From IMG/VR virus record IMGVR_UViG_2563366894_000005: 3,141 bases of DNA, one strand, 5' to 3'. Below the pieces are notes generated by a model. That model ran no database searches. It had not been told where the DNA came from and saw only the letters and a list, made by a program, of their open reading frames with translations. The DNA is from a virus (lineage: Duplodnaviria; Heunggongvirae; Uroviricota; Caudoviricetes). Shown here one piece after another: positions 1-2,906 of this stretch; positions within the stretch are counted from its first letter, which is position 1, and every line of letters starts with the position of its first letter. Both the position numbers and the translations under genes were made by a program.

Positions 1-282
1 ATGAAAGATTTAACACTCAAATTTGCCGACAGGGCCGACTTTTCGGCCTTTATGGATAGCACTGGCTATTATGATGACGAGTCGATGCAGGATGATATTC
101 TTATTGACGTGATAGGTAACGTGTACAAAGAAACCGGAGAACTGACTGAAGATGGCGAACCGGTATGTGTTAAGGAAGACGGATATTTTGTAAACGTGCG
201 CATCATTAATGATTCGCAAATATCGTCATTATTCGATGAATACGTGGTTGCTGTTGAGCATCAACTTCGTGGCTGGATGTGA
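1..282 (+). CDS. Hypothetical small acidic protein (93 aa), first gene of a tail-fibre operon
   Basis: Complete ORF from ATG at 1 to TGA at 280-282. Its stop overlaps a GAGGA Shine-Dalgarno (281-285) placed 6 nt before the ATG of the next gene at 292, which implies translational coupling. Composition by my count is 13 Asp + 8 Glu against 7 Lys/Arg, so net charge is strongly negative. I recognise no family motif. The upstream promoter and RBS lie outside the window. Confidence 0.6.
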   Translation: MKDLTLKFADRADFSAFMDSTGYYDDESMQDDILIDVIGNVYKETGELTEDGEPVCVKEDGYFVNVRIINDSQISSLFDEYVVAVEHQLRGWM

Positions 283-291
283 GGAAGAAAA

Positions 292-1332
292 ATGGCTACA
301 TCGACAGTAATTCCTGATGACATCAAAACGCAAAAATCCGACGTTAGCAAATTAAAAAACGATCAAGGAAGCTACGCAACAAAATTATATGTAGACAGCA
401 AAGATGAAATCGTTGGTGACTGGTCTGCTTCATGGTATCAGCAGGTATTGCCAACTAGCGGAGCTATATTTGGGAGAAAACTCCGCTCAACTCACAGGAC
501 GGCAGGTGTTGAGGATGCGTATTGCGAACTATACCTCAAAAAATGGATAGACAGTCCAGGTAACGCAATGGCGCGCCTTAACCTGAACGATAACGGGACA
601 AACATTTGCTGGGACTTTACCAACCTTTATGGCGGTACGATGATTTTTCCCGGTGACAGCGGATACCTCAAAATGGGTAACTGCCTTATGTCATACAGCA
701 AGCGTGGAAGTAACGCGCTTATTAAATTTGATTACACCGACACATTACAGATCAAATATGCCAATCATGGGTCAACCATGACATTAAACACACAGGGAAC
801 CGCTTATGCTGGTGTTACTGCTCAATTGTGGGGCAACACCAGCCGTCCTGTTGTTTATGAAGTCGGTGTTGATGGTGGCGCTTATATGTTCTATGCGCAG
901 AAAAATACCGATAACACCTATATGTTAAGCGTTAATGGTGCATGTCATGCCACCGCATTTAACCAGCATTCCGACCGGGATCTGAAAGACAACATTCAGG
1001 TGATCGATAATGCAACCGACCGCATCCGTAAAATGAACGGCTATACATACACGCTTAAAGAAAACGGTATGCCCTATGCTGGTGTCATTGCACAGGAAGC
1101 TCTGGAAGCAATCCCAGAAGTTGTAGGTTCCGCAATGAAATATCAGGACGGTGCAAGCGGATCGGAAGGTGAAGAAGGTGAACGTTATTACACAGTAGAT
1201 TATTCTGGTGTTACTGGCTTGCTTGTTCAGGTAGCCAGAGAGTCAGACGACAGAATAACAGCACTGGAAGAAGAAAACGCAGAATTAAGACAAAGATTAT
1301 CTGCAATTGAGGCGGCGCTTGCGTCTAAATAA
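292..1332 (+). CDS. Phage tail fibre / receptor-binding protein with C-terminal peptidase-S74-type intramolecular chaperone (autoproteolytic) domain
   Basis: 346-aa ORF with SD GAGGA 6 nt upstream. Residues ~227-346 carry the hallmarks of the endosialidase / T5 L-shaped-fibre chaperone domain as I know them: 'SDRDLKDNI' (candidate nucleophile Ser227 at nt 970-972, general-base Lys232), 'GVIAQEALEAIPEVV', 'YTVDYSGVTGLLVQ', then a coiled-coil tail 'ITALEEENAELRQRLSAIEAALASK'. Residues 1-226 are Gly/Asn/Thr/Tyr-rich, as expected for a receptor-binding region. Family assignment is by motif recognition, not search. Confidence 0.85.
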   Translation: MATSTVIPDDIKTQKSDVSKLKNDQGSYATKLYVDSKDEIVGDWSASWYQQVLPTSGAIFGRKLRSTHRTAGVEDAYCELYLKKWIDSPGNAMARLNLNDNGTNICWDFTNLYGGTMIFPGDSGYLKMGNCLMSYSKRGSNALIKFDYTDTLQIKYANHGSTMTLNTQGTAYAGVTAQLWGNTSRPVVYEVGVDGGAYMFYAQKNTDNTYMLSVNGACHATAFNQHSDRDLKDNIQVIDNATDRIRKMNGYTYTLKENGMPYAGVIAQEALEAIPEVVGSAMKYQDGASGSEGEEGERYYTVDYSGVTGLLVQVARESDDRITALEEENAELRQRLSAIEAALASK

Positions 1333-1374: not shown

Positions 1375-1668
1375 ATGGATATAACACCTTTCCTTCATGC
1401 GCTTTGTGCTGTGGCTGCGCAGCTACTGATTGGTCTTTTTACCGGGAACTGGGCTTACGGGGCGATAGCCGGTTGTACGTTCTTCATTGCGCGTGAACAC
1501 ACCCAGGCAGAATATCGCTGGATTGAAATGTTCGGGCATGGCAAGCGAATGAATATGCCGTGGTGGGGCGGTTTTGATCCGCGCGCGTGGGATGTGGCAA
1601 GCCTGATGGATTTTGCTGTGCCGGTGGTGGCGTGTCTGCTGGTCTGGCTGTTGGTTAATCGTGGGTGA
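1375..1668 (+). CDS. Small hydrophobic membrane protein (~97 aa, two predicted transmembrane helices), unknown function
   Basis: The track ORF (1360-1668) begins at TTG. I place the start at ATG 1375 because AGGA (1366-1369) sits 5 nt upstream; ATG 1369 is the alternative. Hydrophobic segments are 'FLHALCAVAAQLLIGLFTG...AYGAIAGCTFFIA' and 'VASLMDFAVPVVACLLVWLLV', separated by an aromatic/basic loop 'REHTQAEYRWIEMFGHGKRMNMPWWGGFDPRAWD'. Local GC is about 47-60% in the stretches I counted. Confidence 0.6.
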   Translation: MDITPFLHALCAVAAQLLIGLFTGNWAYGAIAGCTFFIAREHTQAEYRWIEMFGHGKRMNMPWWGGFDPRAWDVASLMDFAVPVVACLLVWLLVNRG

Positions 1669-1678
1669 AAAAAGGTGA

Positions 1679-1807
1679 GCTGTATATGCAACGGAGGAAG
1701 AAACTCCGTTGCTGGAAGCCTGGAAGAAGTATCGGGTGTTGCTGAACCGTGTTGATACATCAACTGCACCTGATATTGAGTGGCCTACGAACCCTGTCAG
1801 GGAGTAA
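1679..1807 (+). pseudogene. C-terminal remnant of a lambda-Tfa-like tail fibre assembly gene (no start codon, ~42 codons)
   Basis: The frame is open only from the TGA at 1676-1678 to TAA at 1805-1807 and translates to '[42 protein letters not shown]'. This closely matches the C-terminus of phage lambda Tfa as I recall it (...[32 protein letters not shown]). There is no in-frame ATG and the N-terminal ~150 codons are absent. By position it corresponds to the tfaD relic of K-12 DLP12 (recalled synteny, not verified). Confidence 0.75.
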
Positions 1808-1820
1808 TCATTGGGATTAT

Positions 1821-1855
1821 GCCGCAGCACGTCTTAAGCAAGAACGTGCTGCGGT
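1821..1855. terminator. Conserved hairpin between convergent genes (candidate bidirectional terminator / RNA stabiliser)
   Basis: Perfect 11-bp inverted repeat: CCGCAGCACGT (1822-1832) and ACGTGCTGCGG (1844-1854) around an 11-nt loop that itself contains the palindrome CTTAAG. It lies between the Tfa-remnant stop (1807) and the minus-strand methyltransferase stop (1862-1864). The T-run at 1865-1870 is 10 nt from the stem, so this is not a canonical intrinsic terminator on either strand. Confidence 0.4.
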
Positions 1856-1861
1856 TGGATG

Positions 1862-2530
1862 CTATTTTTTCCCTGAAGCGGAAAACATTACTACAGTACC
1901 TTGAACCTTGGTTTTAACATTCTCGAAATGCTCTGAGAGTATATGTGTTAAGCCTTCTTCGGAATCTTTTGTGTTTGAAAAGATGCCTTTCTGATTGTAA
2001 ATGCGCATCAGTTTTTGACCGAAGCTATTGTGCACAACTCCATCGCCAAGAATTGTGGCTCCGTATAGAGTTCCATCGTCAGTTAAGGCCTGCGCCGCAT
2101 TGCGTATTACACAGCTTTTTGTAGATATATTTCCAGGCAGGCAGTGAAGAAGGTAAAACATGGAAATGGAATCAAATTGACCATGTAACGCCGCGGGATA
2201 AGGTTCAAAAACATCATGGCTAATTTTATGTTTAATTTTTGATTCCCCAGCCCTTGTAGATGCCGCGTTCAGGCTAGCTTCGTTCAAATCCATTAAAGAT
2301 ATCAGACTACTCTCAGGTACGTGAGTAAGGTAAAACCCAGTTCCAACACCAATATCCAGATGGTTGTTACCTACATGTTCCAGAAAGTGTGGAAGAAGGT
2401 GTTCCTTTGTAGGACATCCCCATGCAAGCCGATTTGATACTCCCAAAACCCACCAGTCATAAAGCTTTAGGGTAAGTGGTGTGTAAATTTTAGCCCCATC
2501 ATCTGTGTTTTTTTTCATTGATTTCACCAT
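1862..2530 (-). CDS. ybcY: Class I SAM-dependent methyltransferase (small-molecule/protein type, not a DNA methyltransferase); prophage cargo gene
   Basis: 222-aa minus-strand ORF. Motif I 'LDIGVGTG' (Gly-rich SAM loop), an acidic residue ending the next strand ('LMDLNE'), and a hydrophobic motif-II-like 'DSISMFYLLHCL'. No DPPY/NPPY or PCQ DNA-methyltransferase motifs. Sampled GC is about 37-40%, against about 47-60% in the neighbouring fibre and membrane genes. The maximal ORF starts at ATG 2530-2528, but the in-frame ATG at 2518-2516 has a GGTGA SD 5 nt upstream and is the more likely start (218 aa). The symbol is given because position between two tfa relics matches my recollection of ybcY in K-12 DLP12. 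Confidence 0.85.
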   Translation of the reverse strand: MVKSMKKNTDDGAKIYTPLTLKLYDWWVLGVSNRLAWGCPTKEHLLPHFLEHVGNNHLDIGVGTGFYLTHVPESSLISLMDLNEASLNAASTRAGESKIKHKISHDVFEPYPAALHGQFDSISMFYLLHCLPGNISTKSCVIRNAAQALTDDGTLYGATILGDGVVHNSFGQKLMRIYNQKGIFSNTKDSEEGLTHILSEHFENVKTKVQGTVVMFSASGKK

Positions 2531-2559
2531 GTTATAGTTTTATTTGTGAATTAAATCAA
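2531..2559 (-). promoter_or_regulatory. Putative sigma-70 promoter for the methyltransferase gene
   Basis: On the minus strand: -35-like TTGATT (complement of 2554-2559), a 17-nt spacer, and -10-like TATAAC (complement of 2531-2536), all in the AT-rich 56-bp divergent gap between the methyltransferase and the truncated tfa gene. Called by eye against consensus only. The predicted transcript start would fall inside the first ATG, which fits use of the second ATG (2518). Confidence 0.25.
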
Positions 2560-2586
2560 TTATGGCGATGAATTACAAGGGGTTAA

Positions 2587-2856
2587 ATGCTGCCGCAGCA
2601 TAGCGATATTGAAATAGCCTGGTATGCTTCGATACAGCAGGAGCCGAATGGCTGGAAGACCGTCACCACACAGTTCTACATCCAGGAATTCAGTGAGTAT
2701 ATTGCGCCACTGCAGGATGCTGTAGATCTGGAAATCGCAACGGAGGAAGAAAGATCGTTGCTGGAGGCATGGAATAAATATCGGGTATTGTTGAATCGTG
2801 TTGATACATCAACTGTACCTGATATTGAGTGGCCTGCAAATCCTGTCAGGGAGTAA
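2587..2856 (+). CDS. tfaX: Truncated tail fibre assembly protein (Tfa family, 89 aa), tfaX-like
   Basis: ATG at 2587 with AAGGGG SD (2577-2582) 4 nt upstream. The C-terminal half '[54 protein letters not shown]' matches the lambda Tfa C-terminus from memory. The N-terminal ~40 aa are unrelated to lambda Tfa, and the protein is under half the ~194-aa lambda length. Position downstream of the methyltransferase matches tfaX of DLP12 as I recall it. Confidence 0.8.
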
Positions 2857-2906
2857 TCATTGGGATTATGCCGCAGACACGTCGTATGCAGGAACGTGCT
2901 GCGGTT
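2728..2906. repeat. Direct repeat copy B (tfa 3' end + hairpin), ~180 bp
   Basis: Partner of 1679-1856 in the same orientation. Together they bracket the methyltransferase gene, its promoter region and the unique 5' part of the tfaX-like gene. Confidence 0.8.
2871..2904. terminator. Second copy of the conserved hairpin, 3' of the tfaX-like gene (putative terminator)
   Basis: Left arm CCGCAGACACGT (2871-2882, one extra A as a bulge) and right arm ACGTGCTGCGG (2894-2904). The loop (CGTATGCAGGA) differs from copy 1 while the stem is kept. It is followed by a T-rich stretch, TTAGTTTGTGAGCTTT. Confidence 0.35.

Follow-up and report, generated by a model that had tools for sequence, protein, structure and literature searches.

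Closest described systems

The closest described counterpart of the gene studied here is ybcY (b0562) of Escherichia coli K-12, an annotated pseudogene in the prophage DLP12 with the arrangement tfaD - ybcY(-) - tfaX - appY - ompT. The gene itself is an intact leftward open reading frame (ORF) in a stretch of 3,141 nucleotides from a Caudoviricetes virus (IMG/VR record IMGVR_UViG_2563366894_000005); this whole stretch is called the window below. Stand-alone genes of the same general kind are lom and bor of lambda and ompT of DLP12-type phages. They resemble the window gene in having their own promoter and a terminator-like hairpin, a foreign composition, a location at the tail-fibre or attachment (att) end and no necessity for the phage, and ompT is co-retained with the window gene in prophage remnants. 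However, lom, bor and ompT encode outer-membrane proteins with known phenotypes, whereas the window product is a predicted cytoplasmic enzyme. A homologue from Klebsiella has been published only as a marker of liver abscess and of hypervirulent Klebsiella pneumoniae (hvKp) (PMC5126061, PMC9372168). The best solved relatives, CysG and BelI, are Ca2+-dependent carboxyl O-methyltransferases with a His-His-Asp metal site and a carboxylate-binding Arg22 (PMC11408123; PDB 9FCD, 9FCE).

Our reading is that the window gene is a lambdoid-prophage moron encoding a soluble class I S-adenosylmethionine (SAM)-dependent methyltransferase that would act on a small-molecule or lipid acceptor and benefit the host; we assign this reading a probability of about 0.7. 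Public annotation already covers the gene, the family to which it belongs and the pseudogene status of the K-12 copy, and the gene is no new kind of element. Added here are a corrected start codon, the identity of the flanking repeats, the recognition of the slot as a cargo hotspot, the quantified retention beside ompT and the link to plasmid homologues in other pathogens. The literature searched contained no functional study of ybcY/b0562, of the RefSeq proteins, of a DLP12 methyltransferase or of the pEA29 or pLVPK methyltransferase.

The methyltransferase gene and its upstream region

The gene and its 5' region comprise three annotated features:

1862-2518, minus strand: methyltransferase coding sequence (CDS), YbcY family, 218 aa, from the conserved second ATG (ORF list, Pfam, PHROG 2132, RefSeq, AlphaFold2 (AF2) model)
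1862-2530, minus strand: longer form of the methyltransferase, 222 aa as annotated, from an in-frame ATG at 2530 (ORF list)
2519-2586, minus strand: AT-rich 5' region of the methyltransferase gene with a Shine-Dalgarno sequence and two sigma-70-like promoters (GC content, promoter scan)

An earlier annotation made from the letters of the window alone (hereafter the sequence-only reading) had described a full open frame on the strand opposite to every neighbour. Both points hold in the ORF list, in which the frame at 1862-2530 is uninterrupted, encodes 222 aa from the first ATG and is the only one in the window to run leftward. Translation almost certainly begins at the second ATG (2518) and gives 218 aa, because the PHROG 2132 profile aligns with aa 5-222, most homologues are 218 aa long and the first ATG is ACG in the ompT-adjacent allele. 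This allele is very common and retains the second ATG as well as the Shine-Dalgarno sequence GGTGA, which is found at 2528-2524 in the window, 5 nt ahead of the ATG at 2518.

The composition of the gene is foreign to the prophage backbone. The guanine-cytosine (GC) content of the gene is ~41.1-41.2% and its GC content at third codon positions (GC3) is 35.6-35.9%, as opposed to 53-60% GC and 56-70% GC3 for the head and tail CDSs of the prophage. Computed prophage-wide, the gene is thus distinct from the backbone, lying ~15 points below it, and no other CDS of the prophage has a GC content as low. The sequence-only reading had placed it 10-20 GC points below the adjacent fibre and membrane genes. 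This is correct for the membrane-protein gene (54.4%, +13 points) but not for the fibre gene (44.5%, +3 points).

The 56-bp spacer upstream of the longer form (2531-2586) has a GC content of 26.8% and contains two overlapping sigma-70-like promoters, TTAACC-16-CATAAT (2586-2559) and TTGATT-17-TATAAC (2559-2531). In K-12, genomic SELEX (systematic evolution of ligands by exponential enrichment) assigned a constitutive RpoD promoter, TTGATT-17-TATAAC, to ybcY and located an H-NS site in the ybcY/tfaX spacer (PMC3946193). The K-12 spacer differs from that of the window by 1 base. The AT-rich upstream region with a plausible promoter, as proposed from the letters alone, therefore has independent support in the RpoD match. 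The same match, together with the orientation opposite to the late operon, also agrees with the proposed independent transcription. Being on the opposite strand, preceded by an AT-rich spacer and followed by a hairpin, the gene has the layout of an autonomous unit.

Protein family and predicted structure

The window protein matches Pfam Methyltransf_12 with 37.5 bits (cutoff 30), and Methyltransf_23, Methyltransf_25 and Methyltransf_11 are likewise above their cutoffs. PHROG 2132 is matched with an E-value of 4e-157 over query aa 5-222, corresponding to profile positions 1-218 of 218. In RefSeq, the protein is WP_000240999.1, named 'class I SAM-dependent methyltransferase'. The AF2 model has a predicted local distance difference test (pLDDT) score of 91.5 and displays the seven-stranded alpha/beta fold of class I methyltransferases. 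Motif I, whose intactness had been claimed in the sequence-only reading, is indeed intact (LDIGVGTGF, with GVGTG at aa 57-61), and G57, G59 and G61 are at least 90% conserved among 90 family representatives. In the profile alignment, D77 and the HD(102)VF motif are placed at the ribose- and adenine-binding aspartates of CysG, which are numbered Asp77 and Asp102 in that enzyme (PMC11408123). Motif IV reads DSIS. Based on sequence and predicted structure, the protein is assigned to the class I SAM-dependent methyltransferases, YbcY family.

An orphan DNA or RNA methyltransferase with a part in epigenetic control or anti-restriction would share the Rossmann methyltransferase fold, which is common among nucleic-acid methyltransferases, and the tRNA/rRNA methyltransferases CmoA, Trm9, METTL6 and RsmC do appear lower in the structural and profile lists. 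The top matches in both lists, however, are small-molecule or lipid methyltransferases, which supports the small-molecule rather than the DNA type favoured from the letters alone. A motif scan of the window protein found neither (D/N/S)PP(Y/F/W) nor PCQ, again as expected from that reading. The ENV at aa 199 stands alone, with no PCQ to go with it, and no target-recognition domain is present in the 218 aa. A nucleic-acid substrate is accordingly rated as highly improbable, and a DNA methyltransferase was rejected on the missing DPPY and PCQ motifs, the lack of a match to any Pfam or NCBIfam DNA-methyltransferase family and the small-molecule structural matches. A restriction-modification system was also rejected: as had been stated, no nuclease gene adjoins the methyltransferase gene, nor does a specificity gene, and the neighbours are tail-fibre, tfa, DUF4376 and ompW fragments only.

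More specific assignments were not obtained from NCBIfam. The equivalogs PmtA (phospholipid N-methyltransferase), RquA (rhodoquinone) and CpaM score far below their cutoffs, and no other NCBIfam equivalog comes near its cutoff. The sequence and profile matches in the PDB (JHAMT, UbiG, CysG/BelI, NodS and XrdM) span the SAM-binding core only.

An exhaustive search of 1.84 billion representatives returned 1326 relatives with an E-value of 1e-3 or less, of which 197 reach 1e-30 or less; among the relatives are proteins of fungi (Aspergillus wentii, 45% identity), of Acidobacteria and of other phyla. None of the family relatives examined carries a functional name. In an alignment of 90 representatives (33-56% identity), D77, H125, G153 and D185 are invariant, and Y20, D21, W33, C35, S117, C126, P128, G129, F180 and N182 are conserved in at least 90%. 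The family signature can be written as YD..V...SN...W.CP / LDxGxGTG / DLN / FDS...YLLHCLPG / YN.KGIF.N..D; its residues Y20, D21, W33, C35, H125, C126 and D185 are all present in the window protein. A few distant representatives, at least one of them fungal, are fusions to cytochrome P450 or RCC1 repeats, a rare arrangement that is at most a hint of small-molecule chemistry.

The best PDB matches of the family profile are CysG/BelI, NodS and XrdM. CysG and BelI are found at an E-value of 7e-7, and hhalign gives a probability of 96.7% against CysG; the sequences of both enzymes were taken from the supplement of PMC11408123. In the profile and hhalign alignments, H125/C126 coincide with the metal-binding His-His pair of CysG/BelI. 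D185 is paired by hhalign with an Asp other than Asp191, in a low-confidence region, and the alignment stops short of the N-terminal Arg region. The two enzymes share ~21% identity with the window protein, over the Rossmann core only. The second metal-binding His is replaced by Cys (C126), the third ligand Asp191 and Arg22 could not be aligned, and unlike CysG and BelI, the window gene is not surrounded by a beta-lactone biosynthetic cluster. Due to these differences, namely the low identity, the Cys in place of His and the missing cluster, the substrate of CysG/BelI is not transferable. The mechanism of the window enzyme may be metal-assisted, which is a lead and not a finding.

Comparison with K-12 ybcY

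The window copy and K-12 ybcY are 99% identical at the nucleotide level, not only in the CDS but also in the spacer upstream and the hairpin downstream, and both loci have the order tfa - ybcY(-) - tfaX. The contrast between an intact copy here and a pseudogene in K-12, stated in the sequence-only reading, is confirmed by the alignment: K-12 has lost 2 bp at the second ATG and its A-run, and with them the conserved start, and reading from the first ATG runs into a stop after 9 codons. The lesion is located at a run of eight A's (window 2503-2518; locus L002, ~4650-4667), and homopolymer slippage at the start codon could recur in other lineages. A second difference concerns the upstream tfa gene, of which 40 codons are left in the window as compared with the K-12 arrangement; most of it has been replaced by a fibre module of the S74 type. 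Standard genetics has missed the enzyme because the K-12 copy is a pseudogene.

Distribution, remnants and selection

Among complete E. coli genomes, the gene is present in 3799 of 5426 (~70%), with up to four copies each, when presence is defined as at least 80% of the gene length at at least 95% identity. It is thereby among the most widespread prophage cargo genes of E. coli, and it has relatives on Klebsiella hypervirulence plasmids. The E. coli copies are nearly always annotated as 'class I SAM-dependent methyltransferase', and the cluster of 100%-identical proteins has 6589 member sequences. The whole window, in contrast, is common to only 37 genomes. Fourteen cultured lambdoid phages carry the gene, including 2G7b, ev243, Turner, Kati and the PhiR series. 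In phage 2G7b, its neighbours are the tail-fibre genes on one side and, on the other, hydrolase, ompT and int, which form a leftward block. The proteins of these lambdoid phages (WP_000240999.1 / PHROG 2132) are identical or at least 99% identical to the window protein and occupy the same place between fibre and ompT/int, with no material difference.

The gene also persists in prophage remnants, to which the prophage at the DLP12 site has decayed in many strains. In strains 23AR0806 and MS20659, for example, these remnants have the order argU - int' - tfa' - MT - ompT - ybcH (MT, methyltransferase gene), with the gene intact. In O157:H7 EC4115, the intact gene stands alone beside yciG, in the order yciG - MT - tfa' - IS66. 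The coordinates of these remnant loci are L018 2501-4354, L020 2672-4525 and L019 2548-3216. A junction of the methyltransferase gene with ompT is found in 1137 of the 5426 complete genomes.

The coding sequence is under purifying selection. The ratio of non-synonymous to synonymous substitution rates (dN/dS) is 0.09-0.29 between E. coli alleles and ~0.11 against the Enterobacter homologue, the latter with dS near saturation. These values bear on the possibility that the gene is a functionless passenger, an intact-looking relic kept by its linkage to ompT and to the recombination hotspot of the tail-fibre genes. Inactivation in K-12 without known consequence, the truncation by IS1 in strain PSS-11, the strong linkage to ompT (1137 genomes) and the lack of a reported phenotype in the literature searched would all suit such a relic. 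It is nevertheless quite unlikely: full-length ORFs predominate among thousands of copies, dN/dS is well under 1 at short as well as long distances, the catalytic-site residues are invariant in fungi and bacteria, and the promoter region is kept in remnants.

Homologues outside E. coli phages

Stand-alone homologues with 56-67% identity are located at non-prophage chromosomal sites in Salmonella, Enterobacter and Yersinia, and between insertion sequence (IS) elements in Aeromonas. In addition, a Salmonella prophage at mutS encodes a 67%-identical gene ~1 kb downstream of its integrase, with a small DUF3950 ORF between them (L014, 6794-7315). The gene immediately following this methyltransferase encodes a ricin-B-lectin domain and is possibly another conversion gene.

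As single-gene cargo, homologues with 41-66% identity are found on 761 plasmids, 603 of which are from Klebsiella. The Klebsiella and Erwinia plasmid homologues are 53-66% identical to the window protein, and that of Prescottella equi pVAPN is ~41% identical. Examples are K. pneumoniae pWSCRKP-1 (L024, 6995-7648), an E. amylovora plasmid of the pEA29 type (L025, 6001-6660) and P. equi pVAPN (L026, 5968-6654). On the Klebsiella hypervirulence plasmid, a ~65%-identical gene stands beside rmpC, rmpD and peg-344. The K. pneumoniae homologue by rmpA (pK2044 BAH65943.1; WP_011251259.1) is similar to the window gene in its full-length identity of ~65%, in being a single mobile gene carried by an enterobacterium that is host-associated and in having no partner. 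It differs in being plasmid-borne and flanked by IS elements and rmp/peg-344 instead of tail-fibre genes. The two accessions are equated by synteny and are candidates for one and the same protein.

A comparison of the neighbourhoods in Salmonella, Enterobacter, Yersinia, Aeromonas, Klebsiella, Erwinia and Prescottella identified no conserved partner gene. Overall, the single-gene cargo settings of the YbcY family comprise E. coli and Salmonella prophages, virulence or ubiquitous plasmids of Klebsiella, Erwinia and P. equi, and remnants at the side of ompT.

Genomic context of the methyltransferase gene

With 100% identity, the window matches part of a defective lambdoid prophage in E. coli strain Ecol_316 and in five other genomes listed. 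In Ecol_316, the prophage is inserted at ompW/yciE-trp and ends ~300 bp past the window. Apart from the methyltransferase gene and its 5' region, the window contains the following features, given in rightward reading order:

1-282, plus strand: ORF of 93 aa, first in the window (function unknown)
292-1332, plus strand: tail fibre, 346 aa, with a C-terminal Peptidase_S74 intramolecular chaperone domain (Pfam Peptidase_S74, aa 227-278; PHROG 4563, tail fiber)
1375-1668, plus strand: hydrophobic protein, 97 aa, accompanying the fibre gene (PHROG 1443, function unknown)
1688-1807, plus strand: remnant CDS of tfa, last 40 codons (RefSeq: 'tail fiber assembly protein, incomplete, missing N-terminus')
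1688-1856, plus strand: left direct repeat, consisting of the last 40 codons of tfa and the hairpin (repeat families D1 and D5; aligned with the 3' end of K-12 tfaD)
1821-1854, no strand assigned: strong GC-rich hairpin that separates the tfa remnant from the 3' end of the methyltransferase gene (RNA fold)
2587-2856, plus strand: tfaX-like ORF, 89 aa, a 5'-truncated tfa paralogue divergent from the methyltransferase gene (Pfam Caudo_TAP, PHROG 2341)
2737-2906, plus strand: right direct repeat, consisting of the 3' end of the tfaX-like ORF and a degenerate copy of the hairpin (repeat search and alignment)
Right of the tfaX-like ORF, last in the window: DUF4376 pseudogene, start only (RefSeq neighbourhood)

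The tfaX-like ORF corresponds to tfaX of K-12. Its Caudo_TAP match (Pfam) covers aa 31-86, equivalent to profile positions 75-130 of 131. The 40-codon remnant on the left was plausibly cut down as the S74-type fibre brings its own chaperone domain.

The methyltransferase gene had been described as bracketed by ~180-bp direct repeats. Such repeats exist and do bracket the gene, but they are ~170 nt long and ~90% identical, with one 1-nt indel (1688-1856 vs 2737-2906), a similarity far beyond chance. Judged from their sequence, they are paralogous tfa 3' ends followed by a terminator-like hairpin and represent both the substrate and the recombination scars of the swapping of tail-fibre modules. 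Transposon ends, a target-site duplication and the ends of a mobile cassette were rejected as explanations, the repeats being coding tfa-paralogue 3' ends plus hairpin. Both tfa 3' ends are also matched by the Rfam small-RNA candidate IS009 (RF02111), with 112.5 bits at 2610-2813 and 68.3 bits at 1666-1764 (gathering score 117). This model appears to describe the coding 3' part of tfa/tfaX and not a separate RNA gene.

The hairpin at 1821-1854 has a predicted folding energy of -28.6 kcal/mol with a z-score of -3.7 on the plus strand, and a z-score of -5.8 on the minus strand. It is followed by a T-run at 1866-1871. The right-hand copy has a z-score of -1.2, which is not significant. The left hairpin is a probable terminator of the rightward late operon and would form the 3' boundary of the methyltransferase unit. 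A weak, sub-threshold Rfam match to CssrB (32.6 bits) lies over the hairpin at 1791-1853. RefSeq further lists a 45-aa 'hypothetical protein', WP_001309429.1, on the plus strand at 1780-1917, which spans the hairpin and extends into the 3' end of the methyltransferase gene; this call looks spurious.

Breakpoint mapping delimits a unit of ~1816-2811 that is conserved across contexts with variable flanks and consists of the hairpin, the methyltransferase gene, the spacer and tfaX. In O157:H7 genomes, the left breakpoint of this conserved module is at window positions ~1816-1822, at the hairpin. The most reduced conserved form is 1691-2616, and decayed remnants keep the 5' region up to ~2616. The gene had been placed inside the tail-fibre module by the sequence-only reading; it is instead found at the distal end of the module, near attR.

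The trio of the 93-aa ORF, the fibre gene and the membrane-protein gene, together with tfa', is also present in the Rac prophage of BL21(DE3) and in strain S1bESBLb. There, the slot holds other genes on the opposite strand, namely pinR, encoding an invertase-family recombinase, in BL21(DE3) Rac (L022, 3033-3623) and a GGDEF-domain gene in S1bESBLb (L023, 3049-4380). Since different leftward genes occupy the same slot, at the distal end of the late operon, it qualifies as a cargo hotspot, and the methyltransferase gene is classed, from this comparison of loci, as exchangeable cargo.

A location directly after the tail-fibre and tfa genes could also indicate that the enzyme serves the phage, by methylating a virion or tail-fibre protein or a host receptor or factor in lytic growth, or by acting in anti-defence. 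The gene is carried by the plaque-forming phages 2G7b, ev243, Turner, Kati and the PhiR series, and the product has a weak, below-threshold Pfam match to the protein/RNA methyltransferase family MTS. We regard a role for the phage as unlikely. The gene is oriented opposite to the late operon and lies past its terminator-like hairpin, it is intact where every phage gene has been lost, homologues with 56-65% identity reside at non-prophage chromosomal sites, and where the same fibre module occurs in other phages, the slot is filled by unrelated genes.

The variable slot at the prophage end, with its alternative genes, is likewise what a defence hotspot would look like, and the methyltransferase might then be a single-gene anti-phage defence or superinfection-exclusion factor of the prophage. 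Its orientation suits expression in the lysogen and it is widely distributed on mobile elements. PADLOC, however, yielded no significant match (best mad2, E 0.009, 12.9 bits, with no stretch passing alone). Moreover, there is no partner effector gene, stand-alone chromosomal homologues are found in ordinary metabolic neighbourhoods, and a lone small-molecule methyltransferase corresponds to no known defence architecture. A defence function is therefore considered very unlikely.

Proposed role in the lysogen

The preferred reading, a moron-encoded small-molecule or lipid methyltransferase of benefit to the host, can be outlined as follows. Transcription in the lysogen would proceed leftward from the gene's own sigma-70 promoter, within an AT-rich spacer predicted from K-12 to be bound by H-NS, and would be independent of late transcription. 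The N-terminal helices (YDWWV...SN...W.C motif) together with H125, C126 and D185 probably form the pocket, in which H125/C126 may bind a metal like the His-His pair of CysG/BelI. The acceptor would be a metabolite of hydrophobic or acidic character, methylated by the enzyme on O, N, S or C, and the resulting benefit would be modest and dispensable and would accrue to the host rather than the virion. The gene was presumably acquired by phages from an enterobacterial chromosomal or plasmid gene and would now pass from phage to phage when recombination occurs at the conserved 3' ends of tfa on either side of it. A role in lysogenic conversion, as proposed in the sequence-only reading, is plausible, the more so because the gene survives in decayed remnants and is under purifying selection.

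Several points weigh against this interpretation. The literature searched holds no substrate, phenotype or expression measurement for the gene or a close homologue. A simple scan found promoter-like matches in the spacer to be no commoner than in shuffled sequence, and the RpoD and H-NS assignments by SELEX were obtained in vitro and for K-12. The dN/dS values within E. coli are built on 2-11 substitutions per pair, and hitchhiking, either with ompT or with the recombination hotspot of the tail-fibre genes, could account for part of the wide distribution. K-12 lives without a working ybcY and strain PSS-11 has an IS1-truncated copy, so any benefit must be conditional.

A bolder version, which we regard as unlikely, would make the YbcY family as a whole a mobile host-adaptation methyltransferase. 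Its invariant His-Cys...Asp site, possibly metal-dependent, would methylate a host-derived or envelope metabolite and thereby have a measurable effect on colonisation or stress tolerance. As to the acceptor, a carboxylic acid or a lipid head group would be a guess. If a host metabolite or lipid is indeed modified, the gene would represent a common but overlooked lysogenic-conversion function.

Further observations on the prophage

In the Ecol_316 prophage, the portal gene is split by ISEc10, an element of the IS21 family (locus L001, 425-2676). The side tail-fibre gene (stf) with the N-terminal domain is present as two incomplete pieces ~1 kb apart (locus L001, 17623-20001).

The 97-aa hydrophobic protein has a GC content of 54% vs 44% for the fibre gene. 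It is encoded directly after the S74-type fibre gene in all three prophages compared (window, 1375-1668; L022, 2512-2805; L023, 2543-2836). As a membrane protein encoded right after the receptor-binding protein, it could, by analogy, be a putative superinfection-exclusion factor.

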